A stretch of 64,000 nucleotides of DNA, from contig JAGWNY010000008.1 in the NCBI GenBank assembly GCA_028872915.1, positions 2,165 to 66,164 of the forward strand, written 5' to 3'. Positions 1,939 to 52,074 of this stretch are shown piece after piece. A program made the translations under genes and the position numbers. The notes below the pieces were generated by a model, which saw nothing but the letters and a program-made list of their open reading frames with translations, did not search any database and had not been told where the DNA came from. Each line of letters starts with the position of its first letter. Position 1 is the stretch's first letter. Source of the DNA: Verrucomicrobiota bacterium (lineage in GTDB: Bacteria; Verrucomicrobiota; Verrucomicrobiia; Limisphaerales; UBA11358).

Positions 1939-3640
1939 CTATGTTTTGGAGGCGTTTGGTGTAGTCGTGGAATTGTTTGGCGGCGACGGTTTTTTCGAGG
2001 GGCAGCATGATTTCGAGGGCCTTGTGAAATTCGGCGCGGCGGACGGCGGCGTCGGCCTGGCTCTTGGCGCGCAGCAGGATTGCGCGGAGGCGTTTGATTT
2101 GTTCGACGGCATTTTTGACGAAGGCGAGGTTGAAGGCGGCGTCGGTGTCGTTGGTGTCGAGCAGGACGGCGTGTTGATAGCTTTTTTGGGCGGTTTCGAG
2201 GCCGGCGAGCAGTCCATCAAGGTCGGGGGCGGATTTGGCGAGTTGGAACCGGGCATTGCCGAGATTGAACATGGCCTTTTGCTGGAGGCGCAGGTCGGGG
2301 GAGAGGGCGGCCTGCTGGAAGAAGGCGGCGGCTTGATCGAAATTGGTGGCGCGATAGGCGGCGTCGCCGGCATCGAAGGCGAGGCGGAGGTCGTTGGTAT
2401 CCAGATCGGCGAGGCGCGAGAATTCGGCCAGGGCGTTTGTGTAATTGGCGGAACGATAGTCGTGAAGCGCGGCGGAGGGGGAGGCGAGGGCGGAGAGGGG
2501 CAGGAGGAGGAGAAGGGCGAGTGGGATGACACCGAGAGCCACGCCGGGGCGAGGAAGCGGCGGGGTTTGCGGCGCGGTTTGCGGGGCGGGCCGTGCATTG
2601 GCGGCGGGAGCGGCTTGAGGAGGGGAGGTTTTTCGGCGTTCGGGCAGAAAAATTTCGGCCAGGAGGAGGGCGATGGCGGCGGCGAGGGGCCATTGGTATT
2701 GTTCGTGCCAGCGGCGGATGACGAGACCCTGGCCAACTGTTTTGGGCAGGAGGGCCAGGCCGCGGGAATAGAGGGTGTCCATGGCGGCGGCGCCGCGCAA
2801 GGGGAGATAAAACGCGCCGGTGGTTTGGGCGATTTGGCGAAGGAGGGAAGCGTCCAAATGGGATTTGACCACGTTGCCCTGGGCGTCGCGGACGTAATCG
2901 GAATTTCCATTGGCGTCCTCGACCCGGAGCAGGTCGCCGGTTTTTGTGCCGATGCCGACGGTGAAAATTTTGAGGCCGGTTTTGGCGGCGGCCTGGGCGG
3001 CCTGGAGGGCGGCGGCGGGGTTGACGGTGTCCTCGCCATCGGTGAGCAGCACCAAGGCCTGATGGCCGGCGGCGCGGGCAAAGGCGGTTTGGGCGGTTTG
3101 AATGGCGGCGGCGATGTCGGTGCCGCCCAGGGGGAGTGAATTGACGTCGAGGGCCTGAACGCTTTCCTGAAAGGCGGTGTTGTCAATGGTCATGGGGCAT
3201 TCGAGGAAGGCATCGCCGGCGAAGGCGACGAGGCCGAGGCGGTCGGATTGGGCGTCCTGCATCAATTCGAGGGCGGCGAGTTTGGCGCGTTCCAGGCGGT
3301 CCGGGGCGATGTCGCGGGCCAACATGCTTTTGGAAACGTCAATGGCAACGATGATGTCGAGGCCGCGTTGCTGGACGGGTTGGAGGTCGAAGCCATGTTG
3401 GGGGCGGGCGAGGGCGACGATGAGAAGGGCGGCAGCGAGAACGAGGAGGGAAAAACGGATTTTGCGCCGGAGGGGCGAGACGCCGGCGGTGAGGACGGGC
3501 AGCAGGCGGGCCTGGACGAATTGGACCAGGAGCTTGCGGCGCCCCCGTTCGCGCCACCAGAAAAAGAGGGCCAAAGCCGGCGGAATGACCAGCAGGAGCC
3601 AGAGGAGATGGGGGTTTTGGAAGCGCATGGGGGACTTCAA
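1910..3640 (-). CDS. batB: BatB-like von Willebrand factor A domain plus TPR membrane protein
   Basis: N-terminal TM segments, then a VWA core (DIIVAIDVSKSM...LVLLTDGEDT...KIFTVGIG), then C-terminal TPR-like repeats. It follows batA in a moxR/DUF58 operon. Confidence 0.8.
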   Translation of the reverse strand: MKSPMRFQNPHLLWLLLVIPPALALFFWWRERGRRKLLVQFVQARLLPVLTAGVSPLRRKIRFSLLVLAAALLIVALARPQHGFDLQPVQQRGLDIIVAIDVSKSMLARDIAPDRLERAKLAALELMQDAQSDRLGLVAFAGDAFLECPMTIDNTAFQESVQALDVNSLPLGGTDIAAAIQTAQTAFARAAGHQALVLLTDGEDTVNPAAALQAAQAAAKTGLKIFTVGIGTKTGDLLRVEDANGNSDYVRDAQGNVVKSHLDASLLRQIAQTTGAFYLPLRGAAAMDTLYSRGLALLPKTVGQGLVIRRWHEQYQWPLAAAIALLLAEIFLPERRKTSPPQAAPAANARPAPQTAPQTPPLPRPGVALGVIPLALLLLLPLSALASPSAALHDYRSANYTNALAEFSRLADLDTNDLRLAFDAGDAAYRATNFDQAAAFFQQAALSPDLRLQQKAMFNLGNARFQLAKSAPDLDGLLAGLETAQKSYQHAVLLDTNDTDAAFNLAFVKNAVEQIKRLRAILLRAKSQADAAVRRAEFHKALEIMLPLEKTVAAKQFHDYTKRLQNIDAIATPHHP

Positions 3641-3665: not shown

Positions 3666-4637
3666 TCACGGGAGCCTCCTCAAGATGGTTTGGGCCAGAC
3701 CCGCCTCGGCGAGGAGGAGGGCCAGGCCGGTGGAAACCAGCCAGGGAAAGAACTCCTTGTATTGGGTGAATTTACTAATGGTTTCGGTGGATTTTTCGAG
3801 TTTGTTAATGTCGCCGTAAATGGCCTTGAGTTCGCCGGTATTGCGGGCGCGATAGAATTTGCCGTCCGTGACGCGCGCGATGTTTTGAAGCAAGTCCGTG
3901 TCGGGCAGATAATCGGCGGGCAGACCCATTTCTTCGACGAGCTGACGGTTGCCGAGGCCGATGGTGTAAATTTTGACGCCGAGGGCGGCAGCGGCCTGGG
4001 CGGCGGCGACGGGGTCCGTCCGGCCCGCGTTGTTTCCACCGTCGGTCATGAGGATGATGATTTTGCTTTTGGCCTTGAGATCGCGGAGGCGGTTGAGAGC
4101 GGTGACGAGGCCATCGCCGATGGCGGTAGAATCCGGGTCAATGACGCCGATGGAAAGGCGGTTGAGGTCTTCGAGGAGGAAATTGTGGTCGAGGGTGAGG
4201 GGCGTGGCGATGAAGGCGCGCTTTGCAAATGCCACCAGGCCGATGCGGTCGTCGGGGCGTCCGGCGATGAATTTTTCGAGGACGGTTTTGGCGACGTTGA
4301 AGCGGCTGATCTGCCCGTTATTAATTACGTAGTCGGGGGTGTTCATGCTGCCGGAAAGGTCGAAGGCGACGGCGATGTCAATGCCGCTGGCTTTGACAAC
4401 GGTCCGGCTTTTCATCCAATGCGGCCGGGCGAGGGCGACGATGAGGAGGGCCAGGGCGAGCCAGCGCAACGCGGCGAGGAAGCGCCCGGCGCGGGAGCGG
4501 CGGATGCTGGAGAGGCCCTCAATCAATTTCAGCGAGGAATAGAGGAATGCCGGGGAACTGCCGCGGCGTCCCTTGAGCCAGATGGCGGGGGGCAGGAGGA
4601 GGAGAAGCCAGAGAAAATAAGGATGGGCAAATTGCAT
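3666..4637 (-). CDS. batA: BatA-like VWA domain membrane protein
   Basis: MQFAHPYFLWLLLLLP N-terminus. VWA MIDAS region IDIAVAFDLSGSM, then IILMTDGGNNAG and KIYTIGLG, with a C-terminal TM segment. Confidence 0.85.
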   Translation of the reverse strand: MQFAHPYFLWLLLLLPPAIWLKGRRGSSPAFLYSSLKLIEGLSSIRRSRAGRFLAALRWLALALLIVALARPHWMKSRTVVKASGIDIAVAFDLSGSMNTPDYVINNGQISRFNVAKTVLEKFIAGRPDDRIGLVAFAKRAFIATPLTLDHNFLLEDLNRLSIGVIDPDSTAIGDGLVTALNRLRDLKAKSKIIILMTDGGNNAGRTDPVAAAQAAAALGVKIYTIGLGNRQLVEEMGLPADYLPDTDLLQNIARVTDGKFYRARNTGELKAIYGDINKLEKSTETISKFTQYKEFFPWLVSTGLALLLAEAGLAQTILRRLP

Positions 4638-4643
4638 TTTCGA

Positions 4644-5228
4644 TTATGAATTTGACACTTCGGCAGGAAGAGGCGGCGGAACGGCGGTTGGGGCGGCCGG
4701 AGCGGCCGGAGCGGCCGGGCCTTCCATGCCTTTGGGTTCGGTTTCATCCACGAGTTGAAGGGCGGATTGGTGGAGAGCGAGCAATTCATTTTCGCGAGGT
4801 TCATATTTGGCGAATTTGACGAGGTCGCAGCTTTCCAGGAATTGGGCGAGACTTTGTTTTTGGCCTGGGGTGAGGCGGTCGGTCCGGGTGAGTTCGCGAA
4901 GGAATTCCTCGGTGGTGCGTTCCGGGGCGCGGAAGTCGAACCGTTGTTCGAGATAGACGCGGATGGCATGGGAAACGAGGGTGCAAAAGGGCTTTGGCTG
5001 GCCGATGAATTGGAGGGCCTTTTCGAGCATTTGGCGGGCGCGAACGTGGGAAGGAACGGGGGGCACGATGGGAACGCGGGCGCGACGCCTGCGCCAGGCG
5101 CGCCAGGCGACGAACAAGGCGGCCAGAACGGTGATGGCGGCGACGGCCCACCAAAGGGGCGTCCATTCGTTGGGGATGGGAATGGGCGGCTTGATGTCGC
5201 GGATGTCGTTGGGCGTTGCCGTGGTCAC
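4644..5228 (-). CDS. DUF4381-type single-pass membrane protein of MoxR/Bat operons
   Basis: DIRDIKPPIPIP followed by a TM helix and WRRRR. The conserved C-terminal part contains CDLVKFAKY. It sits between the DUF58 gene and batA. Confidence 0.7.
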   Translation of the reverse strand: MTTATPNDIRDIKPPIPIPNEWTPLWWAVAAITVLAALFVAWRAWRRRRARVPIVPPVPSHVRARQMLEKALQFIGQPKPFCTLVSHAIRVYLEQRFDFRAPERTTEEFLRELTRTDRLTPGQKQSLAQFLESCDLVKFAKYEPRENELLALHQSALQLVDETEPKGMEGPAAPAAPAAPTAVPPPLPAEVSNS

Positions 5229-5261: not shown

Positions 5262-6245
5262 TCAGCCGCGCAGCCGCCGTCGTTCGCGCGTTTCAAAAAA
5301 TCCGCCCAGGGCGGCGTTGTACGGTTCGTCGGTGCGCAATTGGATGGAATCAATTCCGGCGGAGCGGAGTTGGCGGGCGACGAGGGCGATTTGGCGAGCT
5401 CGCCGGGCGGCAAAGGCCTGGCGGTTGCGGGCGTTGCCGGTGTGCAATTCGAGGATTTCGCCGGTTTCAGCATCTTCAAGGACGAGGCGTCCGAGCGCGG
5501 GCAGTTCCAGTTCGTAGCGGTCGGTGATTTGGACGGCGACGACGTCGTGGCGGCGATTGGCCATGCGCAAGGCGGTCTGGACGCGCTGGGACAATGGCAT
5601 TTCGGCCAGGGCAGACGGCGGAGGAGGAGCGGCGGGGCGAGCGGGGCGCGGAAGGGGGGCGGGGAGGGGCGGGGGCGCGGCATTGCGCTCGAGAAAATCG
5701 GAGATGACGACGGCGATGGCCTTATGCGTGAGAACGCGGCCCATAAATTCGAGGGCGGCGGCAAGATCGGTGCCGCGGCCGCGGGGTTCGAAGAAAAGGA
5801 CTTCGCGAATGACGCGCAGGACATGGCCGCGGCCCTTGCGGGGCGGGATGAATTTTTCGACGTCGTCGGTGAAGAGGAGGAGGCCGACTTTATCGTTGTT
5901 GCGGATGGCGGAGAAAGCGAGGACGGAGGCGATTTCGGCGGCGAGTTCGCGTTTGGATTGGGCGCGTGAGCCGAAGAGGCCGGAGCCGCTGACGTCCACA
6001 ACGAGGATGAGGGTGAGTTCGCGCTCCTCGACGAACTTTTTGATGAAGGGATGGTTCATGCGGGCGGTGACGTTCCAATCAATGGAACGGACGTCATCGC
6101 CGGGCTGATATTCGCGGACTTCATCGAAATTCATGCCCTGGCCCTTGAAGACGCTGTGATAGGCGCCGGCGAGGGATTCGCTGACAAGCCGGTTGGTGCG
6201 GATTTCGATCTGGCGGATTTTTTTGAGGATATCGCGTGGGATCAT
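5262..6245 (-). CDS. DUF58 domain protein (MoxR-associated, VWA-like)
   Basis: MIPRDILKKIRQIEIRTNRLV...FKGQGMNFDEVREYQPGDDVRSIDWNVTAR...LILVVDVSGS is the classic DUF58 signature. There is an internal Pro/Ala-rich insertion. Confidence 0.9.
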   Translation of the reverse strand: MIPRDILKKIRQIEIRTNRLVSESLAGAYHSVFKGQGMNFDEVREYQPGDDVRSIDWNVTARMNHPFIKKFVEERELTLILVVDVSGSGLFGSRAQSKRELAAEIASVLAFSAIRNNDKVGLLLFTDDVEKFIPPRKGRGHVLRVIREVLFFEPRGRGTDLAAALEFMGRVLTHKAIAVVISDFLERNAAPPPLPAPLPRPARPAAPPPPSALAEMPLSQRVQTALRMANRRHDVVAVQITDRYELELPALGRLVLEDAETGEILELHTGNARNRQAFAARRARQIALVARQLRSAGIDSIQLRTDEPYNAALGGFFETRERRRLRG

Positions 6246-6246
6246 G
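6198..6246. repeat. Direct repeat copy 1 (functional 5' end of the DUF58 gene)
   Basis: GCGGATTTCGATCTGGCGGATTTTTTTGAGGATATCGCGTGGGATCATG. On the minus strand this encodes MIPRDILKKIRQIEIR. Confidence 0.95.
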
Positions 6247-6249
6247 GGC

Positions 6250-6277
6250 TTGCAAAAAGCACAACGGCAGGTAGGTT
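6250..6277 (+). promoter_or_regulatory. Candidate sigma70-like promoter of TA cassette 1
   Basis: TTGCAA (6250-6255), a 16-nt spacer, then TAGGTT (6272-6277), just upstream of the ATG at 6285. The region is homologous to the head of cassette 2. Confidence 0.3.
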
Positions 6278-6284
6278 TGGGTTC

Positions 6285-6506
6285 ATGGATTCGGAATATG
6301 TATTAAAGGAAGCCCGCGCGCTGCCGTTCGCGGAACAAGTGGAATTGTGCCGCAACCTCTGGAACGACATCGTCCATTCGCACGAACTTTCACCCGGTGA
6401 AGCCGAAGTCATTGACCGCCGTCTCCAGGAGCATCTCGACCATCCCGACGACATTGTTTCGTTGGCCGAAGCCAAAGCCAGGCTCGACGCGAAATACGGG
6501 AAATGA
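6285..6506 (+). CDS. Putative addiction-module antitoxin component
   Basis: MDSEYVLKEARALPFAEQVELCRNLWNDI...EAEVIDRRLQEHLDHPDD resembles the small helical 'putative addiction module component' family. Its stop overlaps the toxin start (ATGA). Confidence 0.65.
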   Translation: MDSEYVLKEARALPFAEQVELCRNLWNDIVHSHELSPGEAEVIDRRLQEHLDHPDDIVSLAEAKARLDAKYGK

Positions 6507-6799
6507 ACCGCCGGTTTGTTCTTCGGCGCGTTGCGGAACAGGAGTTTGAACATTCCATTGCCTGGTATGAAAACCAGCGCAAAAGCCTGGGACAGAAATT
6601 TCGCTCCACGATTGAGGATTACTTTCAACAAATTGCGGACCACCCGGAATGGTTCACCAAAGTGCGAGGCGAAGTTCGCCGCGCCGTCGTCCGACGCTTT
6701 CCGTTTGTGATTCACTTTCTCGTCGAGAAGGAAGGCATTGTGATATTGTCTGTCTTCCACACGAGTCGCGACCCGGAGCAATTGAAATACCGACGATAA
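6503..6799 (+). CDS. ParE/RelE-superfamily type II toxin
   Basis: 98 aa. AEQEFEHSIAWYENQRKSLGQKF...ADHPEWF...RRFPFVIHFLVEKEGIVILSVFHTSRDP matches the ParE/RelE fold pattern. Confidence 0.75.
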   Translation: MNRRFVLRRVAEQEFEHSIAWYENQRKSLGQKFRSTIEDYFQQIADHPEWFTKVRGEVRRAVVRRFPFVIHFLVEKEGIVILSVFHTSRDPEQLKYRR

Positions 6800-6820
6800 A
6801 ATTTTCACGAGCAGCCTGGC

Positions 6821-6869
6821 GCGGATTTCGATCTGGCGGATTTTTTTGAGGATATCGCGGGGGATCATG
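6821..6869. repeat. Direct repeat copy 2 (orphan copy of the DUF58 5' end)
   Basis: Differs from copy 1 at one position within the 49-bp core (T>G). There is no DUF58 body behind it. Confidence 0.95.
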
Positions 6870-6941
6870 CGGTGGAAAAGGATGAAGGTTGCATGACGAA
6901 TGACGAATCCGCCGATCTCGGTTGTGGTTGGGAATTACCCC

Positions 6942-6969
6942 TTGCAGACACGGCAAATGAGGTTACAAT
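6942..6969 (+). promoter_or_regulatory. Candidate sigma70-like promoter of TA cassette 2
   Basis: TTGCAG (6942-6947), a 16-nt spacer, then TACAAT (6964-6969), 11 nt before the ATG at 6980. Confidence 0.35.
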
Positions 6970-6979
6970 TTGAATCAGG

Positions 6980-7198
6980 ATGAAAACGGTTGAAGCGATC
7001 ATTGAAACCAATGGCGAGGTGCATTTGGTCGAGCCGATTCGTGTTTTATCACCGCGTCGCGCACTGGTCACGATTCTTGAAGAAGCTCCGACCGCGCATG
7101 ACGCATCGCTGTTAAGCGAGGCGGCGCTGGCCGAGGATTGGAATCGCGCCGAGGAGGACGCCGCATGGGCACATTTGCAGCCGGCCAAGTCGTCATAG
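6980..7198 (+). CDS. Putative antitoxin of the MazF/PemK module
   Basis: 72-aa ORF directly upstream of, and overlapping, the MazF-like gene. The acidic C-terminus (EDWNRAEEDAAW) is typical of antitoxin tails. Confidence 0.55.
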   Translation: MKTVEAIIETNGEVHLVEPIRVLSPRRALVTILEEAPTAHDASLLSEAALAEDWNRAEEDAAWAHLQPAKSS

Positions 7199-7500
7199 TT
7201 CATTTCCCTTTCTCCGATCTCACGGCATCCAAGCTCCGGCCCGCGGTGGTGCTGGCGGAAGCCGGACGCGGCGATTGGATTCTCTGCCAGATCACCAGCA
7301 AATCCTACGGCGATGAAAAGGCCATTGCCTTGAACGCTTCCGATTTCGCACATGGCTCGCTTCGCCTGACCAGTTACGCGCGTCCCGGCAAACTGTTCAC
7401 CGCGCACAGCAGCCTCGTCGCCAATCAGGCGGGCGAATTGCAACCCGGAAAATTCTCCGCCGTGCGTGACGCCGTGGTCCGAATGATACAAAAGGGTTGA
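7165..7500 (+). CDS. MazF/PemK-family type II toxin (endoribonuclease)
   Basis: MGTFAAGQVVIVHFPFSDLTASKLRPAVVLAEAG...ILCQITSK...RPGKLFT is the PemK/MazF SH3-like signature. The start was taken at the internal Met of ORF 7138..7500. Confidence 0.8.
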   Translation: MGTFAAGQVVIVHFPFSDLTASKLRPAVVLAEAGRGDWILCQITSKSYGDEKAIALNASDFAHGSLRLTSYARPGKLFTAHSSLVANQAGELQPGKFSAVRDAVVRMIQKG

Positions 7501-7567
7501 AAGCGGCCGCCCGCAACGCGCGAAATGACGCGCAACGTTTCTCGAAACGCCCACGATGCGGTTCATC

Positions 7568-7615
7568 CGGATTTCGATCTGGCGGATTTTTTTGAGGATG
7601 TCGCGGGGGATCATG
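7568..7615. repeat. Direct repeat copy 3 (orphan copy of the DUF58 5' end, 11 nt downstream of the moxR stop)
   Basis: CGGATTTCGATCTGGCGGATTTTTTTGAGGATGTCGCGGGGGATCATG differs from copy 1 at two positions. Weaker similarity continues beyond the core (RMNRIVG versus RTNRLVS). Confidence 0.95.
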
Positions 7616-7625
7616 GGAGGATGGA

Positions 7626-8681
7626 TCAGGGCACGGGCAATTCATCCAGGATTTTTTGGATGACGATTTCGCCGGTTTTTTCCTCGGCCTCGGCTTCGTA
7701 AGTGATGGCGACGCGATGGCGGAGGACGTCCATGGCGATGCTTTTGACATCCTGCGGCGTGACATAGCCGCGGCCCTTGAGGAAGGCGAAGGCCCTAGCG
7801 GCGAGGGCGAGGGCGATGGTGGCGCGGGGGGAGGCGCCCAACTGGATGAATTCGCCGACGGCGATTTTGTATTGGTCGGGATCGCGGGTGGCGCAGACGA
7901 GGTCCACGATGTAATCCTTGACTTTATCATCCACGTAGATGTCGTTGATGACTTCGCGGGCGCGGAGGATGTCGGCGGGGTCGACGACGGGCCGGGTGAC
8001 GGGGGCGCCGGAGGTGCGGGCCATCAATTCGAGGATTTTGCGTTCCTCGTCGCGGGCGGGGTAACCGATTTTCAATTTCAACATGAAGCGGTCCACCTGG
8101 GCTTCGGGGAGGGGGTAGGTGCCTTCCTGTTCGATGGGGTTTTGAGTGGCCAGGACGAGGAACGGCTCGTCCAATTTGAAGGTTTGTTCGCCGATGGTGA
8201 CCTGTTTTTCCTGCATGGCTTCGAGGAGGGCGCTTTGGACCTTGGCGGGGGCGCGGTTGATTTCGTCGGCGAGAATGAGATTGGCGAAGATGGGGCCGCG
8301 GCGGGTGGTGAAGCCGCCGGACTGGGGGTTGTAAATCTGGGTGCCGATGACATCGGCGGGGAGCATGTCGGGTGTGAATTGGAGGCGGGCGAATTTGACG
8401 TGGATGCAGGAGGCGAGGGATTTGACAGCGAGGGTTTTGGCGAGGCCGGGGACGCCTTCGAGGAGGACGTGGCCATTGGCGAGGAGGCCAATGACGAGGC
8501 GTTCGGTCAGATAATTCTGGCCGACGATGACTTTGCCGAGTTCGGTGAAAAGCGGGTGCGTAAAAGCGGCCGCCTGTTTGACAGCTTCGTTCAGTGAAGA
8601 AATGCCTGTATTCATCTGTAGATTGTTTTTTCCGACAAAAGATTTTGCGGTTTGTTCAACAAAAATTTTTCCGATTTCCAA
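7626..8681 (-). CDS. MoxR-family AAA+ ATPase
   Basis: HVLLEGVPGLAKT (Walker A), ILADEINRA (Walker B) and VLATQNPIEQEGTYPLPEAQVDRF. Confidence 0.95.
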   Translation of the reverse strand: MEIGKIFVEQTAKSFVGKNNLQMNTGISSLNEAVKQAAAFTHPLFTELGKVIVGQNYLTERLVIGLLANGHVLLEGVPGLAKTLAVKSLASCIHVKFARLQFTPDMLPADVIGTQIYNPQSGGFTTRRGPIFANLILADEINRAPAKVQSALLEAMQEKQVTIGEQTFKLDEPFLVLATQNPIEQEGTYPLPEAQVDRFMLKLKIGYPARDEERKILELMARTSGAPVTRPVVDPADILRAREVINDIYVDDKVKDYIVDLVCATRDPDQYKIAVGEFIQLGASPRATIALALAARAFAFLKGRGYVTPQDVKSIAMDVLRHRVAITYEAEAEEKTGEIVIQKILDELPVP

Positions 8682-8717: not shown

Positions 8718-9473
8718 TCACGCGCCCGGGACAATGGCGATCTGACCGGATGAGAGCCAGCCGAATTTTCCGGAGTCGTTGACCTGGACCCAATTGCCGC
8801 GGCGGTCCAGAACGGGGAATTCCGCGCCATCGCGCGCGGCAAACGTTTGCCGGGCATCAGCGAAGGGGCCGCTGCGCGCCACCGCGCGCGGCTGGACGAC
8901 GACGGCGATGGATTTGGAAAAATGCACGACGGCTTGCGCGGCGAGCGCCGAGCCGAAAAGGAGGGCGAGGAGAATGGAAAGTGCGGCGGCGGGACGAAGC
9001 GTCCGGCGGAGAGCGGGCCGGATTTGGGCGGCGGCAAACAAGAGGAACGCCAGCCAGAAGGCCGCGGCCGCCAGGCAGGTCCATTCATTAAGGGTCAACT
9101 GGCCCAGCCAATCCTCCCAGACGGGCGGGGCGGTATTGTCGCCGGCCTGCTTGCGGACAAAGTCGAGGTTGGCGCGGATGTCCGGGTCGCGGGGGGCGAG
9201 GCGTTCGGCGCGGAGAAAGGCGGCAATGGCTTTGCCATTATTGCCGAGCCTGAACTCGGCATTGCCGTCGTTGAAAAGGAGATTCGCGGAAACGCGGCCG
9301 GAAGCGAGAAGTTTTTGGTACAGGCCCGCCGCGTCGGCAAATTTCCCCCGGGCATAAAGGCGATTGGCGGTGGAAAAACCGGCGGCGAAATCGTCCGCGG
9401 CCATTGCGCTGCCGCGCGGGAAAAGCGCGACAAGAATTAAAAAGAGACTGGCGATGTTTCGATGGTTTTTCAC
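8718..9473 (-). CDS. BatE-like TPR plus SH3 domain protein
   Basis: Signal/TM segment, TPR repeats (YARGKFADAAGLYQKLL..., NDGNAEFRLGNNGKAIAAF), two TM helices, and a C-terminal bacterial SH3-like NWVQVNDSGKFGWLSSGQI. The GTG start at 9473 overlaps the batD stop. Confidence 0.7.
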   Translation of the reverse strand: MKNHRNIASLFLILVALFPRGSAMAADDFAAGFSTANRLYARGKFADAAGLYQKLLASGRVSANLLFNDGNAEFRLGNNGKAIAAFLRAERLAPRDPDIRANLDFVRKQAGDNTAPPVWEDWLGQLTLNEWTCLAAAAFWLAFLLFAAAQIRPALRRTLRPAAALSILLALLFGSALAAQAVVHFSKSIAVVVQPRAVARSGPFADARQTFAARDGAEFPVLDRRGNWVQVNDSGKFGWLSSGQIAIVPGA

Positions 9474-11257
9474 GAGGGCAATTCGCGCAATTGGCGGGCA
9501 ACGGTTTCGAATTTGGCGGCCACGGAATGAAGTTCGGCGACGCCGCGCACGGGGGCGTAACGGGCCTGGTTGCAAAGCTGGAACAACCCGCGCAATTCAT
9601 CGAGCAAGGCTTCGGGGGCGCCGCTTCGGGCCAGTTGGCCATCCACGGCTTCCTCGGTGACGGAGGCGGCGGGGCAATCGAGGCGTTCGCCCAAGGTCTC
9701 CTGCAACAAGCGAAACAGGGCGGCAAAAAACTGGTCGGGATTATTTTCGGCGGCGAGGCGCTTGAGATCGGCGATGCCGTTTTCGACAAGGGCCTGGACG
9801 CGAAGGCGGCGGCGGAGACGGGGATTATTGGCCAGGCTGTCGGCGCGCCTGCGCCAGAGGAGAGCGCCGAGAAAGGCGAGGACGGGCAATGACTGCGCGG
9901 CCAGGAAGAGGGGGCGGGAGAGGAGCGGCGGGCCGATTTGGGCAAGAACGCCGGGATTTTCCCTGATGGGCAGAATGTCCCCGGCGGTTTGGGACTTTTG
10001 GGACGGCTGGACGCCAGCCAGGGTTGGCGCGGGGGCGGCGCCGGCGGCATGAACGACGAGCGGAATGGGCGGCTGGGCGAGGACGTGATAGCGTCCATCG
10101 CCGGGATCAAAGAAGGAGAAGGAAAATTCGGGGAGGGCGCGGACATTCGGGTCCTGGGGCGTAACGATTTGTTCAAAGGTTTTTGTTCCCTGGAAGCCGA
10201 GTTGGCCGGTTGTTTCGGTCCTGGCGGTTGGGGCAAAGGTTTTGAAGCCGGTCCAGGCGGATGGAGCGGGAGGCTGGAGGGAGGCAATGGCGCCAGAGCC
10301 GGCAATTTGGAGATGGACGGTGACGGGGTCGCCAGCGGTGACATTGGTGGGGCCGGCGGTGACGGTCATGGTATAGCTGCCGACGGCGCCCGTGAAGCCG
10401 GCGGGGACATTATCGGCCGGCAGGGGCAAGGCATCGGCATGGGCCTGGCCGCTGGCGATGGAGATTTGCTCCTGGCGAACCGGCGCAAATGGATTCGCCA
10501 TGCCAAACTGCTGGAAAAAGGAATCCTGCTGCTGTCCGGGGGACGGGAGGACGAGGGTCAACGCGGCGGTGAAAGGACCGAGGGTGAGCGGGCCGGCCCT
10601 GTTGACGGTCAATCCGATGGCGGCTGGAAGGACGGTATAAACGCGGCTGCCAATCTGGGTGCGATATCGCGCCCCATAAACGCCCTTGCCAACGTTGAAT
10701 CCATCGGCAGTCATGGCGGAAAAATTCGGCTGCGAAAAGTTTTGGACGTCGTCACGCAGATAGATTTTCAATTGGGCGGCGAGGGTCTGGCCGACGTAAA
10801 TTTTTTGGGCGGGCAGGGCGAGGGTCATGAAGGCGATCTGGCTGCCGGACTGGATGGCCGAGGCGGTGGGGGCGTTTGGCTGGACGACGGTCAAGGAGAG
10901 AGGCTGGCTGGAGACTTGATGGCCGTCAATGTCCACGGTGAGCGCGGGGATGGCAAAGCTGCCAACTCGCCGGGGCGTTACGGAGTAAGTGATCGTGACC
11001 GACGAGGTCATCTCGCCGTTGATAAGAGAGAGGTTTTGTGATTCACCGGTGCGGGTGATGTCCAGGCCGGGGACGCCGGGGGTGGGAACATTGGCCGGCG
11101 AACCGCCTTCAAAAGAAAGCGAGAGCGTGGCGGTCTGGCCGAGGGAAATATTCGACTGATCGAGCGAGGCCGTGAAGGTGGCCGCGCGCGCCCAAGCCGC
11201 CAGCCACAAGACCATGATGGCCGCGGTCGAAACCAGTTTCAGCCGTTTTTTTCTCAA
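9470..11257 (-). CDS. batD: BatD-like (oxygen tolerance) protein
   Basis: Signal peptide, repeated Ig-like segments (FTASLDQSNISLGQTATLSLSFEG..., YSVTPRRVGSFAIPALTV) and a late TM helix, as in BatD. Confidence 0.8.
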   Translation of the reverse strand: MRKKRLKLVSTAAIMVLWLAAWARAATFTASLDQSNISLGQTATLSLSFEGGSPANVPTPGVPGLDITRTGESQNLSLINGEMTSSVTITYSVTPRRVGSFAIPALTVDIDGHQVSSQPLSLTVVQPNAPTASAIQSGSQIAFMTLALPAQKIYVGQTLAAQLKIYLRDDVQNFSQPNFSAMTADGFNVGKGVYGARYRTQIGSRVYTVLPAAIGLTVNRAGPLTLGPFTAALTLVLPSPGQQQDSFFQQFGMANPFAPVRQEQISIASGQAHADALPLPADNVPAGFTGAVGSYTMTVTAGPTNVTAGDPVTVHLQIAGSGAIASLQPPAPSAWTGFKTFAPTARTETTGQLGFQGTKTFEQIVTPQDPNVRALPEFSFSFFDPGDGRYHVLAQPPIPLVVHAAGAAPAPTLAGVQPSQKSQTAGDILPIRENPGVLAQIGPPLLSRPLFLAAQSLPVLAFLGALLWRRRADSLANNPRLRRRLRVQALVENGIADLKRLAAENNPDQFFAALFRLLQETLGERLDCPAASVTEEAVDGQLARSGAPEALLDELRGLFQLCNQARYAPVRGVAELHSVAAKFETVARQLRELPS

Positions 11258-20091: not shown

Positions 20092-21747
<1,656 letters not shown>

Positions 21748-22139: not shown

Positions 22140-22826
22140 TCAACGCTTCTCCGCCGGAACCAATCCGCCCGGCAACGGTTCAAATTGCGGCAGCGCCTCG
22201 CCGATTGTCGAATTGACTTCCTTCATCAATCGCTTCTTCACCGCTTCGGGCAGCGACGGCAAATCGCCGTCGTCGAAATAACCCAGCGCCCGCAGTGAAA
22301 TGTGCGAATTAAACTCGCCGTTGAACACGGCATAAGCCGCGCCCAACCCATTCTTCAAACCCACGCCCTGCCGTAACAATTCGTCAATATCCAAAAAATC
22401 CTTCATCTGGCCGCGCATCCAGATCGTCCGCAATTTCGTCGCCAGCAAATCCAGCGGCGACGCCACCCGCAACACCTTGTCGTCAGTCTCCAAGGGGTCA
22501 CCCACCCGGCGATGCGACAGTCCGCCGAGAAATTGAATTCTTATTGCCTCGCCGCGCACCACTTCGACTTCGAGCGTGTTCGTCGCGGCTTGCAGCGGCT
22601 TGCCGCCGCGCAGAAACCCAAGCGACCGCATCAACTCATCCGGATTCACCGGTTCGGAGGTGAAAAAATCAAAATCAGCCGATGCCCGGTGTCCGTAATG
22701 CAACGCGACCGCCGTGCCGCCATACAGCACAAAATGTTTCGGCACCCGCGCCATTTCCGGCCACAGCTTCCGTTGCGGCGCGGGCAGCGATTCGAGCTTC
22801 GGCGCGAAGCTCATGTCAAAGACCAA
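22140..22826 (-). CDS. Nucleotidyltransferase AbiEii/AbiGii toxin-family protein
   Basis: HFVLYGGTAVALHYGHRASADFDFF is the minimal nucleotidyltransferase motif (GG...D.D) in the AbiEii family context. 228 aa. Confidence 0.7.
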   Translation of the reverse strand: MVFDMSFAPKLESLPAPQRKLWPEMARVPKHFVLYGGTAVALHYGHRASADFDFFTSEPVNPDELMRSLGFLRGGKPLQAATNTLEVEVVRGEAIRIQFLGGLSHRRVGDPLETDDKVLRVASPLDLLATKLRTIWMRGQMKDFLDIDELLRQGVGLKNGLGAAYAVFNGEFNSHISLRALGYFDDGDLPSLPEAVKKRLMKEVNSTIGEALPQFEPLPGGLVPAEKR

Positions 22827-23118: not shown

Positions 23119-25059
23119 TTACTTCTTCTCATCCACCACTTCGGCGTCAATCACGCCTTCGTCTTTTTTCTTTTCTTCGGCTTTGGCCTCCCCGCCCGGT
23201 TGTCCGCCGGCCGGGCCGCCCTGGCCCTTTTGGGCCTGGGCCTGGGCCGCGGCAGCCTTGTATAACTCGGCGCTCACGGCCTGCCAGGCTTCGTTCAGTT
23301 TTTCGGAAGCGGATTTGATGGCCGCCGCGTCGCCCCCCTTGAGGGCCTCCTTCACGTCCGCGACCGCCTTTTCTATCTTGCTCCGGTCGCCTTCGGCGAT
23401 TTTATCCTTGTTGTCCTTGAGCATCTTTTCGGAGCGATACACCGCGCTGTCCGCTTCGTTCCGAACCTCCACTTCTTCCCGTTGTTTTTTGTCCTCCTCG
23501 GCGTGCGCTTCCGCGTCTTTGCGCATTTTTTCGACTTCATCCTTCGAAAGCCCGCTGCTGGCGGTGATGGTGATCTTTTGTTCCTTGCCCGTGCCCAGGT
23601 CCTTGGCGCCCACGTGCAGGATGCCGTTGGCGTCAATGTCAAAGGTCACCTCGATCTGGGGCACGCCGCGCGGCGCGGGCGGGATGTCCGCCAGATGAAA
23701 CTTGCCAATGGTTTTATTGTCACGGGCAAACTGGCGTTCGCCCTGAAGCACGTGGATTTCGACGCCGGGCTGGTTGTCGCTGGCCGTCGAAAAAATTTCC
23801 GACTTGCGCGTGGGAATGGTCGTGTTGCGCTCGATGAGCCGGGTGAAAACGCCGCCGAGGGTCTCAATGCCCAGCGAAAGCGGGGTCACGTCCAGCAACA
23901 ACACGTCCTTGACCTCGCCCTTGAGCACGCCGGCCTGGATGGCCGCGCCCACCGCGACGACTTCGTCCGGGTTCACGCCCTGGTGCGGAGGCTTGTTGAC
24001 CAGCGAGCGGGCCGTGTCCACGACGCGCGGCATGCGCGTCATGCCGCCGACGAGCACGAGCTCGTCAATTTTGCCGGCCTCAATTCCGGCATCGGTCAGG
24101 CATGCTTTGACGGGCTTGATGGTGCGCTCGAACAATTCATCGGTCAGTTGCTCCATCTTCGCGCGCGTGAGGCTTTTTTGAATGTGTTTGGGGCCGCTGG
24201 CGTCCGCGGTGATAAACGGCAGATTGATTTCGTACTGTTGGGAGCTGGACAGCGAGATTTTGGCCTTTTCGGCTTCTTCCTTGATGCGCTGAAGGGCGTC
24301 GGGCTGCTTGCGCAGGTCCATGCCGGCGTCCTTTTTGAATTCTTCCAGAATCCAGTCCATGATGCGATTGTCCCAATCATCGCCGCCCAGGTGCGTATCG
24401 CCATTGGTGGCCTTGACCTCGAAAACCCCGTCGCCAATCTCAAGAACGGAAATATCGAACGTGCCGCCGCCCAGGTCATAGACGGCGATTTTTTCGTCTT
24501 TCCTTTTGTCCAAACCGTAGGCGAGCGAAGCCGCCGTCGGTTCATTGATGATGCGCAGGACTTCCAGGCCGGCGATTTTGCCCGCGTCCTTGGTGGCCTG
24601 GCGCTGGGAATCATTGAAATAAGCCGGCACGGTGATGACGGCTTGGGAAATCTTTTCGCCAAGCCGCATTTCGGCATCGGCTTTGAGCTTGGCCAGGATC
24701 ATGGCCGAAATTTCCGGGGGCGAGAATTGGCTTGCTTTGCCTTCCATCTCCACCTCAACCGCAGCGTCGCCGTTGGATGCCTTGACGACCCGGTAAGGCA
24801 CCCGTTTGATTTCCTCGGACACTTCATCAAATTTGCGGCCCATGAACCGCTTGATGGAATAAATGGTATTACGGGAATTGGTAACCGCCTGGCGCTTGGC
24901 CGCCTCGCCCACGAGCCGCTCGCCGCTCTTACTAAAGGCCACCACGCTCGGAGTCGTCCGTTTGCCCTCCGAATTTTCCAAAACCAACGGCTCGCCGCCT
25001 TCCATGACTGACATGCAGGAATTCGTCGTGCCCAAATCAATACCTAAAACTTTTGCCAT
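23119..25059 (-). CDS. dnaK: Molecular chaperone DnaK (Hsp70)
   Basis: [26 protein letters not shown] and [10 protein letters not shown]. The start was taken at the internal Met ([10 protein letters not shown]) of ORF 23119..25143. Confidence 0.98.
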
Positions 25060-25384
25060 AAATTCAATAAAGTCATTTTTCAATGGCTTGTCTCTGGCCG
25101 ACGACAAGCCGGATTCAGTCCATGCAATAATGATGCCGGACAAAAAAGTATTTCAAACAAGGCGAAAACAAAGGGAAACAGCGCGATTTTAGGAATTTTT
25201 GGAAAATTGCAAATTGCGCCAGGAGAGCCGGAATGGCACAGCATTGGATACATATTGGCACATAATGAAAAACCCGAATGACGGGGAGAAAAGGCATTTT
25301 ATCCGCAAATCTCGCCAGCCCGGCCATGCAGTTGGGAGGGATGGAGAGGCAGAAACCGGGATTTTTGACAGGATGTCAAAAATG

Positions 25385-49644: not shown

Positions 49645-50805
49645 TCAAGCCCTTTTCCCTGCAAAAAGGTTGCCCAACGGTTTCGCGTCACCAAACACGT
49701 CCACCATCCAGTTTCCAGATGCCGGAATGATTTTTTTACGTGCCCGCACCTGTCCGAATGAAGCATTCACGTTTTTGATGTAGCGAACCGTTCGGTGGAT
49801 CATGCGATTCACGATTCCGGTTCTTCCTCGACTGGAGCGGTCATTAAAATCGGCGGTAATAAAAGAACATTTTGTTCTTCCCAAAATGCGTTGCGCATCC
49901 TTTTCGGTTGGCAGTTTGACTCTTCCCAAATTGAACGGTGCGAGCATGGCCACGGGTTCGCTGATTAACATTTCCGTCCAAACCGCCCCATACTCGCCCG
50001 TTTCAGAACCATGATGAGGAATTTTGAACAGTGAAGCTTTCCCGTCAGGGCGCTCTGAAGATTCCACAATCAATTTCCATCCCCCGAACGGATTGCCTTT
50101 TTGTTCCATATCGGCCCCAAGCAGCATCCGGATGTCTCCCACCCGCAACCACAACACGACCGAAAATAGATTCGGACGCTGCGGTATTGGCCGCGTAAGA
50201 ATCTCCCCGGCTGGAAACAGTGAAGCGATCATCTCCAAAGATTTTTTTATGGCAGCGTCCGACGGGGACAAAGAATGCAGTTCGGCGGAGGTGTCGTGGC
50301 TGGTGTCGCTCACAGCACGCCGACGCCAGAGGCATTGATTGTGGGCGGCAAAACCAAATGGATACTCGCCTTCGCCGCCTTTCAGGGCTTCCGCCGAACG
50401 CGCCAGCGTCTCGATAACCTGGCTCAATTCATTTACCGGCGATGATGGCAGCCCGGTTTTTTTCCAGAGGTCCGTGAGCGTAACAAATTCCTTTGACCAC
50501 AACGCCTGCGAACAAATGAACTTGGCCGACGAACAGGCTGAAACCGTTTGTGCCAAGCCGCGCACGTGATCCTGGTGCCAATGGGTCGCCACAACGCGCT
50601 TTACAGACGTGGAGGCATCCACCCCAAGCCGCTTTAGATAAGCCAACCCCGCGGGCGTTCGACCATCCGGTGCAATGCAGGAGTCCACAATGATCCAATC
50701 GCCCCACCCGACGTGCGCAACAATGCACTCGCCGAACCCCGGCCCAAAAAGGGAAATTTCCAGTTCGTCGCCGTCAGGCGGGATGGTTGGCTCGTTCGAG
50801 ATCAA
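49645..50805 (-). CDS. Stand-alone ComEC/Rec2-type metallo-beta-lactamase-fold hydrolase (predicted nuclease) with an extra ~120-aa C-terminal region
   Basis: LEISLFGPGFGECIVAHVG, ATHWHQDHVRGL (HxHxDH) and FKIPHHGSETG (the HHGS motif of the ComEC-like MBL clade). Confidence 0.75.
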   Translation of the reverse strand: MISNEPTIPPDGDELEISLFGPGFGECIVAHVGWGDWIIVDSCIAPDGRTPAGLAYLKRLGVDASTSVKRVVATHWHQDHVRGLAQTVSACSSAKFICSQALWSKEFVTLTDLWKKTGLPSSPVNELSQVIETLARSAEALKGGEGEYPFGFAAHNQCLWRRRAVSDTSHDTSAELHSLSPSDAAIKKSLEMIASLFPAGEILTRPIPQRPNLFSVVLWLRVGDIRMLLGADMEQKGNPFGGWKLIVESSERPDGKASLFKIPHHGSETGEYGAVWTEMLISEPVAMLAPFNLGRVKLPTEKDAQRILGRTKCSFITADFNDRSSRGRTGIVNRMIHRTVRYIKNVNASFGQVRARKKIIPASGNWMVDVFGDAKPLGNLFAGKRA

Positions 50806-51421
50806 GGAAAGAAAGGAAGATTGCCGCGGCCTCCTTGGTTCGCTCTATTTCGCCCCGTGACCACCCGGGCAATCTTTGAAAGCGAATCATGGAAAAACGG
50901 TAAACTTGTCCGTATTCTTCACGCCGGTAGCCCATCACCCAGTAAAACACGGCGCCTGGCTTCACCAAGTCTTGATCTCCGGGCATGACTTCAGCGAGGG
51001 GAATCTCGGCTTCCTCCTCGCAATTGGCATTGGTCTTGTCCACCAATCGCGCCACGAACGAATCACCTTGCACCGACCGGACTATGCCCTCAAACTTTTG
51101 AAGAACGTGGAATTCCTGAAGACTTGGCGGTATCACCGGTACCCAGACAACGGCTGGCTTCTCGGCTGATTCTGCGCGAAGCCGTTTCAAGTCCATCGTG
51201 TCACTGCAAAAGGGAAGCACGTTGCCCTCCGGCGATTTGAATCTCCGCAAGGCCTGTGGGTCGGACAAAAAACCCCGGTATTCCATACGCGAGCCGGTCA
51301 GATTGGCAAATTCTTCGTCCACCGACAGCGTAGCTTTGTCCCGGACAAGCCGCCGGCTAGACGACAAATCCGCCGCCACACCGTGTGATGATTCCAAAAC
51401 TGCTTCGCCACCCGATTTCAT
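50774..51421 (-). CDS. Hypothetical protein (middle gene of the low-GC three-gene operon)
   Basis: 215-aa ORF. Its start overlaps the upstream gene's stop (ATGA) and its end overlaps the MBL gene by 32 nt. I recognise no motif; the true start may be an internal Met. Confidence 0.55.
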   Translation of the reverse strand: MKSGGEAVLESSHGVAADLSSSRRLVRDKATLSVDEEFANLTGSRMEYRGFLSDPQALRRFKSPEGNVLPFCSDTMDLKRLRAESAEKPAVVWVPVIPPSLQEFHVLQKFEGIVRSVQGDSFVARLVDKTNANCEEEAEIPLAEVMPGDQDLVKPGAVFYWVMGYRREEYGQVYRFSMIRFQRLPGWSRGEIERTKEAAAIFLSFLDLERANHPA

Positions 51422-52074
51422 AACTTCATTAAAGTTTGCATGATGCGAACGGAGCGTTCAAGCGAGATTTGCCAGGACGCAGCGAGAATTTTCATCATCC
51501 GCTCGCACTCGTCCGCCTTCACCTCCGCGTCATTATCATAATGGTCGTTTACCTCAATATAGGCGCCAAACGGTTTGACGAGGACCGATGGCTCGACCAC
51601 CACGGAGATTCTGCCTTTGTAGTCGTCCGGCCTGACGCCTTGCATCTGAATGCGCTTCATGCCCGGCTTCTCCAGGAGACCAGCCCATGGTTCTTTGGGG
51701 GCCAGACGATGACCAAGCTGATGCCAAGCGTCTTCGCTTGCACTTCGGAAATGTGCAATACGGTTGATGCCCATTTGCTTGACCGGCGTGTGACAGAGCA
51801 AGCCAAACGTTCCGCGCACGAGATCGCGTAACGGTTCGAGATTCTGAATTTGGGAGGTGCGGGCGGCAAAACGGTCCTGCGTCACGTCCACCGTTAGCCA
51901 TCCGATGGAAAACATGGAAATATCGGGCGACACGATTTTTATGTCTGCCCGCTCGGCTTCAACCTGCTGAATCAATTTCTGGTGTGCAAACCAGACGGGA
52001 TGAAAAATGGCTGGATTGAACGAGCCAACCAGCACGATGATCACTTCTTCATGTTCTGGTTTCAGGTCGGACAC
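51418..52074 (-). CDS. Hypothetical protein (first gene of the low-GC three-gene operon)
   Basis: 218-aa ORF with a GTG start at 52074. I recognise no motif (VIIVLVGSFNPAIFHPVWF...). It is judged coding from length, coupling and lack of a competing ORF. Confidence 0.6.
   Translation of the reverse strand: MSDLKPEHEEVIIVLVGSFNPAIFHPVWFAHQKLIQQVEAERADIKIVSPDISMFSIGWLTVDVTQDRFAARTSQIQNLEPLRDLVRGTFGLLCHTPVKQMGINRIAHFRSASEDAWHQLGHRLAPKEPWAGLLEKPGMKRIQMQGVRPDDYKGRISVVVEPSVLVKPFGAYIEVNDHYDNDAEVKADECERMMKILAASWQISLERSVRIMQTLMKL

Follow-up and report, generated by a model that had tools for sequence, protein, structure and literature searches.

In a 64,000-nt stretch of the genome of a soil Verrucomicrobiota bacterium (assembly GCA_028872915.1, contig JAGWNY010000008.1; hereafter the window), two toxin–antitoxin (TA) cassettes lie between moxR and the DUF58 gene, on the strand opposite to the operon that holds these two partner genes. 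Each cassette is bounded by copies of the 5′ end of the DUF58 gene and is crossed, on the operon strand, by a stop-free open reading frame (ORF) that leads from one copy of the DUF58 start to the next; we refer to these frames as bridge ORFs. A comparison with related loci (denoted by L-numbers, for example L001 or L092) leads us to propose, with a probability of about 0.6, that small modules, most of them selfish, have long used the moxR–DUF58 boundary of Limisphaerales/Pedosphaera-like metagenome-assembled genomes (MAGs) as a landing pad, in a manner that would combine a long target duplication with bridge ORFs. The new elements are the conserved bridge-ORF architecture and the link of TA modules to long target duplication.

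The duplicated DUF58 start and its cassettes

The DUF58/VWA gene (5262..6245, minus strand; PF01882, E = 1.5e-80) and the upstream operon gene moxR, which encodes an AAA+ ATPase (7626..8615, minus strand; Pfam AAA_3, E = 5.2e-66, and AAA_lid_2, E = 3.3e-23), are separated by inserts of 623 nt (interval 1) and 746 nt (interval 2), together 1.37 kb. The inserts are delimited by a 48-nt core. The pattern CGGATTTCGATCTGGCGGATTTTTTTGAGGATRTCGCGKGGGATCATG has exactly three matches in the window, all on the plus strand, at 6199–6246 (copy 1), 6822–6869 (copy 2) and 7568–7615 (copy 3). No match is expected from 100 shuffles of the window, no further copy was found in the 64 kb with up to three mismatches allowed, and a window-wide repeat scan returned the core as the top direct-repeat family of the entire window. 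Read on the minus strand, every copy encodes ATG plus 15 codons, MIPRDILKKIRQIEIR. Copy 1 is the functional DUF58 5′ end (ATG at 6245–6243), and copies 2 (ATG at 6868–6866) and 3 (ATG at 7614–7612) are duplicated starts, the latter placed 11 nt after the TGA stop of moxR. A preliminary description of this DNA had reported three direct copies and had stated that only the one at 6245 continues into a DUF58 body; both statements hold in the pattern searches and Pfam assignments. Its position for copy 3 was right, and the start positions it gave for the first two copies were off by one.

The three core copies differ from one another at 1–2 of 48 nt. Their similarity ends sharply at the ATG on one side and decays past position +48 on the other. 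The duplicated stretch of DUF58 spans 48 nt in the window; it reaches up to ~81 nt in L029, L035, L042 and L049, where the toxin stop abuts it. A decayed extension of copy 3 (7502..7567, minus strand) corresponds to ~+48 to ~+80 of DUF58 and reads ...MNRIVGVS.... This extension is nearer to the consensus of the relatives (NRIV) than to the window's own gene, with a local alignment score of 30 to the L029 gene versus 14 to the window's DUF58. Upstream of copy 2, on the promoter side of the MazF module described below, a native remnant of the region preceding DUF58 is preserved (6869..6930, minus strand). In relatives, a palindrome of heptamer repeats stands ahead of the DUF58 start; the remnant contains its right arm and aligns to the pre-ATG region of L003 with a score of 64 (shuffles: mean 18, maximum 31). 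The same three-copy layout is present in an independent assembly, GCA_018968965.1 (L001), and an exact-protein look-up of the window's DUF58 and ParE toxin had a single match, a 2.6-kb contig arranged in the same way. Read as TA-strand sequence, the core weakly resembles an intrinsic terminator (window 7567–7592, likewise in copies 1 and 2), with the stem CCGGAT-TTCG-ATCTGG followed by a run of seven T. This stretch adjoins each toxin gene on its downstream side; the count from a terminator scan was not above chance.

All four TA genes are on the plus strand, opposite to the operon. Interval 1 holds a 73-aa antitoxin of the Unstab_antitox family (6285..6506; PF09720, E = 2.6e-5), which overlaps by 4 nt the start of a 98-aa ParE-family toxin (6503..6799; PF05016, E = 1.5e-8). 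The pair scores above the curated cut-offs (35.5 bits versus 23 and 24.6 versus 23.3) and is, by family assignment, a predicted type II TA system. The ParE toxin has 338 homologues, and every context inspected was a moxR–DUF58 junction. Interval 2 holds a MazF module (6931..7501), which appears to be a transferable unit composed of a promoter-like TTGCAG-N17-TACAAT, an antitoxin gene (6980–7198) and a PemK/MazF toxin gene (7165–7500; PF02452 PemK_toxin, E = 3.1e-6, 27.8 bits versus a cut-off of 23.1). This toxin has 6,329 homologues, of which many bear the source label mRNA interferase MazF. No Pfam match was found for the 72-aa antitoxin, which is conserved together with the toxin in other loci; on the basis of PF02452 and the upstream antitoxin, the module is likewise a predicted type II TA system. 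A scan for consensus sigma-70 promoters gave none that passes a strict rule, and we regard TTGCAG-N17-TACAAT as a candidate TA promoter because it is conserved between the window and L092. The TA types and the antisense orientation of both modules agree with the preliminary description. The inserts have a G+C content of 49–59%, compared to 60–70% in their flanks.

Searching with the DUF58 protein yielded 80 relatives at the species level, all of them Verrucomicrobia MAGs, at 71–80% identity. By a strict criterion, 23 of the 80 carry 2–3 copies of the DUF58 start, with other cassettes, and 56 carry a single copy; under looser criteria, further relatives show decayed copies of greater age, and arrays can hold as many as four. 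Between the stop codon of moxR and the start codon of DUF58, the spacing varies from −4 nt to 3.7 kb. At the lower extreme, the two genes overlap in ATGA (L046, L055, L072 and L074), and from their sequence we take these junctions as empty sites. The copy-bounded cassettes are mostly Unstab_antitox/ParE pairs, always opposite to the operon strand (20 of 20 junction TA cassettes), and 16 of 19 toxins and 22 of 23 antitoxins at the junctions of relatives match the same families as the window's pair. The junction ParE toxins comprise about nine types, the deep groups being 17–36% identical in amino acid sequence to the window toxin. Other occupants of the junction are same-strand genes for VanY, DUF5069, a TPR protein and an S41 peptidase, gene-free units of 272–557 nt, and a restriction–modification (RM) pair, consisting of a TdeIII-type restriction endonuclease and a C5 cytosine methylase (L062 937–3262, operon strand). 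In L016 (VanY) and L067 (an aspartyl protease), the same-strand gene opens with a decayed copy of the DUF58 start. The number of gene-free 272-nt units differs (0, 1, 2 or at least 3) among contigs whose ParE toxin is identical, and each unit has a 91-aa ORF and an ATGA. The MazF cassette is absent from the junction in all 80 relatives and occurs there only in the window's lineage. A search for the exact, species-specific 48-mer in metagenome contigs gave no match. Empty sites and different cassette contents are thus both found among the orthologous junctions, and together with the arrays of up to four they bear out the earlier proposal that cassettes entered the first ~50–80 nt of DUF58 repeatedly, the gene start being regenerated each time.

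Two further features of these junctions were observed. The 90–150-nt moxR–DUF58 spacers of relatives (L021, L029, L036, L048, L060, L070 and others) are long palindromes of tandem heptamers (GAATGAA, GGAGTGC, GAATGAC and similar), the right arm lying just ahead of the DUF58 ATG; this arm persists in the window upstream of copy 2 (6893–6915). Gene-free and short cassettes (L003, L004, L011, L017, L020, L052, L034; also L082, original positions 3079–3623) contain G+C-rich, hairpin-rich filler. A recurrent piece of this filler reads '...PPSSRPSPQGEGE...' in one frame, which suggests a dispersed element similar to repetitive extragenic palindromes or miniature inverted-repeat transposable elements (REP/MITE-like).

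Bridge reading frames across antisense cassettes

The preliminary description had noted that 1.37 kb of antisense TA DNA splits the operon. The DNA is present, but it is not a dead spacer, as two stop-free ORFs chain moxR to DUF58 via ATGA overlaps. Bridge ORF 1 (249 aa; 6865..7614, minus strand) begins at the ATG of copy 3, runs antisense across the MazF cassette and terminates at the TGA contained in the ATGA of the copy 2 start. Bridge ORF 2 (208 aa; 6242..6868, minus strand) begins at the ATG of copy 2, runs antisense across the ParE cassette and terminates at the TGA contained in the ATGA of the DUF58 start. The frame of bridge ORF 1 has no stop codon, versus 10 and 8 in the other two frames, and that of bridge ORF 2 has none, versus 7 and 3.

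The same arrangement recurs in relatives. In 23 of 26 intervals (window and relatives), the length is 2 mod 3, no stop occurs in the frame of the upstream ATG, and this frame ends in ATGA; the other two frames have 1–28 stops each. The bridge ORFs are 91–377 aa long. In cassette DNA outside the TA genes and beyond the core (5,680 nt), the bridge frame contains 0 stops versus 62 and 63 in the other frames, and after restriction by hand to fully annotated and gene-free cassettes (3,853 nt) the counts are 0 versus 46 and 53. In toxin genes, the bridge frame coincides with the codon-aligned antisense frame, which is naturally stop-poor. In antitoxin genes, the two frames differ, and there the bridge frame contains 0 stops versus 17 in the aligned frame. 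The rule spans nine or more ParE types (17–36% amino acid identity between deep groups), MazF and the gene-free 272–557-nt units, and openness through non-coding DNA and the non-aligned antitoxin frame extends to at least 12 cassette lineages. As a control, the same MazF module at other loci contains 1–2 stops in the equivalent frame. These stops arise from a TCA serine codon and an ATT-CAC codon pair, at whose positions the window has GCC and ATT-CGT. Among 83 MazF modules elsewhere, the equivalent frame has a mean of 2.8 stops and is open in 7. We conclude from these counts that the open frame and its end points appear to be under selection.

An overlapping stop and start codon (ATGA) gives translational coupling, and untranslated operon RNA is subject to Rho-dependent polarity. 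The bridge ORFs are probably translated bridges, which would keep the operon coupled and shielded from Rho. Polarity is plausible in this organism because the window encodes the transcription termination factor Rho (56289–57770, with an ~80-aa N-terminal extension ahead of the Rho_N domain) and because the sense strand of the operon is C-rich (GC skew on the opposite strand, +0.2 to +0.45). As in known cases of coupling, ATGA links moxR, the bridge ORFs and DUF58, and it joins moxR directly to DUF58 in the relatives with empty sites. Unlike in those cases, the coupled 'genes' are apparently meaningless ORFs antisense to foreign TA genes, seemingly open just for the passage of ribosomes. A literature search found no description of antisense ORFs that bridge insertions.

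Two other explanations of the open frames have to be considered. Antisense overlapping or 'shadow' ORFs are known in G+C-rich bacteria, and the bridge ORFs could be functionless frames of this kind, with DUF58 expressed on its own. Like them, the bridge ORFs are long and lie opposite real genes; long antisense ORFs are common in the window, the toxin-aligned frame would be stop-poor in any case, and relatives tolerate 60–155 untranslated nt before DUF58. This leaves unexplained the 0 versus 62 and 63 stops in non-coding cassette DNA, as well as the openness of the non-aligned antitoxin frame and of the gene-free units. It also leaves unexplained why the start and stop are fixed on functional signals, with 23 of 26 lengths being 2 mod 3 and the ends lying on a duplicated ATG and the next ATGA. 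In addition, the G+C content of the cassettes (47–62%) is lower than that of the flanks, their other frames carry 1–28 stops, and the same MazF module is interrupted in the equivalent frame elsewhere. We therefore consider it highly improbable that the frames are shadow ORFs. It is very unlikely, too, that the bridge ORFs encode functional proteins, such as decoys for MoxR that display the N-terminal peptide of DUF58, or a further TA component in addition to toxin and antitoxin. The first 16–26 residues are conserved in most copies, and real same-strand genes (VanY in L016, the aspartyl protease in L067) are fused to such starts. Past the N-terminal peptide, however, the sequence is dictated by the other strand and is wholly different between ParE, MazF and gene-free units, and the lengths range from 91 to 377 aa. 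One bridge ORF that was examined (L034, 245 aa) has no Pfam match, and in older copies the peptide decays while the frame stays open.

Similar frames were seen at two other places. At L104 (3581–4471), an array of repeated carB fragments encloses a MazF cassette in antisense orientation, and the antisense frame of this cassette is stop-free (277 aa) and meets an ATGA at a start reading MKSVGEAM.... This may be a second bridge ORF; the locus is too complex for it to serve as another clean example. In L082 (original positions 4363–4803; also in L083–L091), a 146-aa ORF fills the space between moxR and the first DUF58 copy, with 4-nt overlaps with both the moxR stop and the ATG of the copy. No Pfam match was found for this ORF, which could be a real gene or another bridge.

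Target-derived repeats and the origin of the cassettes

The MazF module (window positions 6931–7501) is 88% identical, without gaps over 571 nt, to positions 2893–3463 of L092, a different locus (the module is found in L092–L099). There, an NTP_transferase gene is preceded by three TA cassettes in the sense orientation (Unstab_antitox with a ParE-like toxin, VapBC/PIN, and MazF; L092 1096–3576, also L093–L099), and each cassette is bounded by an ~85-nt copy of the 5′ end of that gene, the first copy being decayed and without its ATG. The module is thus a discrete unit that also occurs at a gene unrelated to DUF58, where copies of the local 5′ end flank it in the same manner; this supports the earlier view of the cassettes as inserted DNA. 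In 80 further MazF loci (L104–L183; roughly 60 of them at least 1.5 kb long), ~20 modules are tightly flanked by local direct repeats of 45–185 nt, sometimes within arrays that include other TA types. The flanks derive from the first ~150 nt of gyrA (L172 3342–3496/4371–4525), the 3′ end of uvrA (L173 3615–3669/4364–4418), the 3′ part of a tRNA (L150 728–784/1546–1602; likewise L149), a carB fragment (L104) or an aminoacyl-tRNA synthetase-like fragment (L109 41–216/972–1144/1748–1915), among other examples. Since the repeats differ from locus to locus and measure 45–185 nt, they are target-derived and variable.

This pattern has a precedent in RM systems. Insertion with long target duplication has been described for RM gene units (Furuta, Abe and Kobayashi 2010, PMC2853133), and that paper cites an earlier report by Nobusato et al. 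2000. In the RM case, the insert has no mobility gene, the repeats of tens to hundreds of bp correspond to a single-copy target in insert-free genomes, repeat length varies, and the repeats allow amplification; DNA breaks made by the RM system were proposed as the cause (PMC2853133). Toxins are not mentioned in that paper, a 2013 review credits long target duplication to RM systems only, and our literature search for a report on TA modules found only the RM precedent. The junctions described here share with it a small addictive module, empty sites, tandem amplification and target-derived repeats of variable length (48–81 nt at DUF58, 45–185 nt at other targets). In agreement with the limits used by Furuta et al. 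(2010), the inserts are shorter than 20 kb, no mobility gene was found in them, and the direct repeats exceed 30 bp. The repeat is single-copy in relatives without an insert; these are different species, so the boundaries are not fixed to the base. The cargo differs, consisting of type II TA pairs rather than restriction and modification genes (an RM pair is present in L062), and so does the setting, inside an operon and a coding 5′ end, with arrays conserved across many species. For MazF, breaks made by an RM system cannot be the cause.

Within the core, Asp5 is present in all three window copies and Glu in all 80 relatives, and the core differs at 9 of 48 positions between the window and the L004 gene (manual count). 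Synonymous conservation across species is mildly raised in codons 10–18 (0.74 versus ~0.5–0.6); strong nucleotide conservation, as expected of an RNA or DNA element, was considered as a cause of the repeat identity and rejected given this mild rise. The near-identical cores, the shared Asp5 and the weak cross-species synonymous conservation indicate that the copies were homogenized within the genome, most likely, judging from these patterns, by gene conversion (concerted evolution).

The ParE cassette is old. Its identity to the orthologous cassettes of L004, L019 and L032 is 79.0, 76.5 and 75.9%, compared to 79.2, 77.0 and 75.4% for the DUF58 bodies of the same pairs. In none of the cassette pairs does the similarity exceed that of the flanks, which rules out a recent horizontal transfer of the ParE cassette. 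Carriers of the window's ParE type form one clade and are scattered in it among species without the cassette. Given this distribution and the divergence in step with the flanks, we regard the cassette as inherited and often lost. The preliminary description had named a three-copy layout in relatives, with repeats diverged in step with the flanks, as a sign of ancient local duplication; this holds in part, in that the ParE cassette of interval 1 diverges in step with DUF58.

Two alternative histories were weighed on this basis. In one, a single ancient unit of DUF58 start and ParE cassette was duplicated in tandem, diverged in place and was lost patchily, nothing having been mobile since. The co-divergence of orthologous cassettes with DUF58 fits this history, units do duplicate in tandem, and the ParE cassettes share their orientation, frame relation and junction. 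It does not accommodate the MazF cassette, which belongs to an unrelated family, is missing from the junction of the 80 relatives and is 88% identical to a module elsewhere. Nor does it accommodate the same-strand VanY and aspartyl protease genes with their decayed DUF58 starts or the RM system at the same junction in L062. Moreover, the deep ParE groups are only 17–36% identical to the window toxin, in hosts whose DUF58 proteins are 71–80% identical to that of the window, which would need a far faster clock than that of the co-diverging orthologues. We consider this history unlikely. In the other, the 48-nt core would be an att site or an attC/attI-like site, at which cassettes without an integrase are mobilized in trans. 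Arrays of short, promoter-bearing TA cassettes with one repeat each occur in chromosomal integrons. Integration of phages and islands can carry a replacement gene end, and elements accrete in tandem at an att site in a gene end. The layout is formally right for such a mechanism: a tandem array has one repeat per cassette, with three direct repeats around two elements, and the duplicated gene terminus keeps the target intact each time. The single orientation of 20 of 20 junction TA cassettes and the clustering of cassette-side junctions at ~+60 to +81 of DUF58 point in the same direction.

Against site-specific entry, Pfam assigned none of the 41 large window ORFs to an integrase, transposase or IntI family, no such gene was seen among the called genes of related loci, and no integrase-bearing element was seen at the junction in the 80 relatives (gaps of up to 3.7 kb). 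The core and its flanks fold no better than shuffled sequences (z = +0.37 to +1.58, DNA parameters), no inverted repeat was found at the core copies, the core has no Rfam match, and a back-translated degenerate core found no match in viral contigs. The absence from the window of an integrase, a transposase and an attC-like structure, which the preliminary description had noted, is thus confirmed by Pfam and folding. The locus lacks both the IntI and the attC hairpin of an integron, as well as the fixed core with a cognate integrase of an att-site integrative or cis-mobilizable element. The elements are only 0.3–1.2 kb long. The repeat is the 5′ coding sequence of the neighboring gene and differs by target: the same MazF module has other repeats of 45–185 nt elsewhere, which is incompatible with a fixed att site. 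The element thus does not carry the repeat, and even at the DUF58 site the repeat length ranges from 48 to ~81 nt. The att-site or integron-style mechanism that had been suggested is not supported by these results, and we consider it quite improbable.

A proposed landing pad kept open to ribosomes

The landing-pad explanation would account for these observations as follows. A module would enter the first ~50–80 nt of DUF58 along with a long target duplication that extends from the ATG to ~+80, so that one target copy stays beside moxR and the other restores DUF58. Entry would be free of a recombinase, as reported for RM systems. Once such a slot exists, arrays would probably grow, shrink and swap their content via homologous recombination between the copies, with gene conversion keeping the first 48 nt alike. 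Each duplicated start opens an ORF that is kept stop-free across the cassette, despite the TA genes on the other strand. Ribosomes leaving moxR would then translate across the 1.37 kb of foreign antisense DNA and terminate where a restart at DUF58 is possible, which would leave translational coupling intact and protect the operon transcript from termination by Rho. The TA pairs would keep their own promoters, and because they are presumably addictive, the flanking repeats would not simply delete them. A more general scheme, to which we give somewhat less than even odds, is that TA and RM modules colonize gene ends without a recombinase, and that within operons only 'translationally transparent' cassettes with selected bridge ORFs survive. 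Toxin activity could, in addition, become linked to that of the operon through convergent transcription and translation.

Several points weigh against the landing pad or limit its support. Three ParE control lineages carry 0–3 stops in the equivalent frame, and permutation of synonymous codons within the TA genes leaves the frame open in 24–100% of trials per cassette. This permutation is a weak null because the TA genes already avoid the offending codons, and it was replaced by frame-class counts, stop counts in non-coding DNA and the external MazF and ParE controls. The coding parts alone are weak evidence because the toxin-aligned antisense frame is intrinsically stop-poor, and the 26 intervals are not independent, since their cassettes share ancestry. 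That the bridge ORFs are translated, and that moxR and DUF58 share a transcript, is deduced from sequence. Many relatives have 60–155 untranslated nt between the two genes, so strict coupling is not essential; these gaps are strongly palindromic, and such spacers may protect the RNA in another way. A pair of near-identical genomes with an empty and a filled site, which would fix the insertion boundaries, was not found among the loci compared, and the differences in unit copy number among short-read contigs possibly reflect assembly collapse.

The surrounding genes are those of an aerotolerance-type MoxR–DUF58–Bat operon, with AAA_3, DUF58, DUF4381, BatA and BatD all on the minus strand. By Pfam, DUF58 is followed by DUF4381 (4644–5228) and BatA (3666–4637), after which more Bat-type genes follow. 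The gene order departs from the usual one in that BatD (9470–11257) and a TPR/SH3 gene (8718–9575, minus strand) precede moxR rather than follow DUF58. Elsewhere in the window, an AbiEii-type (type IV TA) toxin gene (22140–22826) lies between a chaperonin gene (20092–21726) and dnaK (23119–25143); the window-wide repeat scan found no long direct repeats flanking it. Four ORFs (49645–52074 and 70–1245) have no Pfam match and a third-position G+C content of 0.59–0.62, compared to 0.7–0.8 in their neighbors, and may be foreign.

The junction illustrates a way in which an operon may cope with a kilobase of foreign antisense DNA lodged between partner genes, namely by keeping the insert translated. 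If this is correct, selection can hold a meaningless frame open across other genes purely for ribosome traffic, a previously undescribed accommodation between selfish modules and operon expression that would bear on the annotation of antisense and 'shadow' ORFs. Long target duplication, until now linked to restriction enzymes and the DNA breaks that they make, would also apply to TA modules, which would argue for a host-side mechanism. With its empty alleles, single cassettes, arrays and gene-free units, the site forms a natural series for array growth, gene conversion and addiction-based retention.

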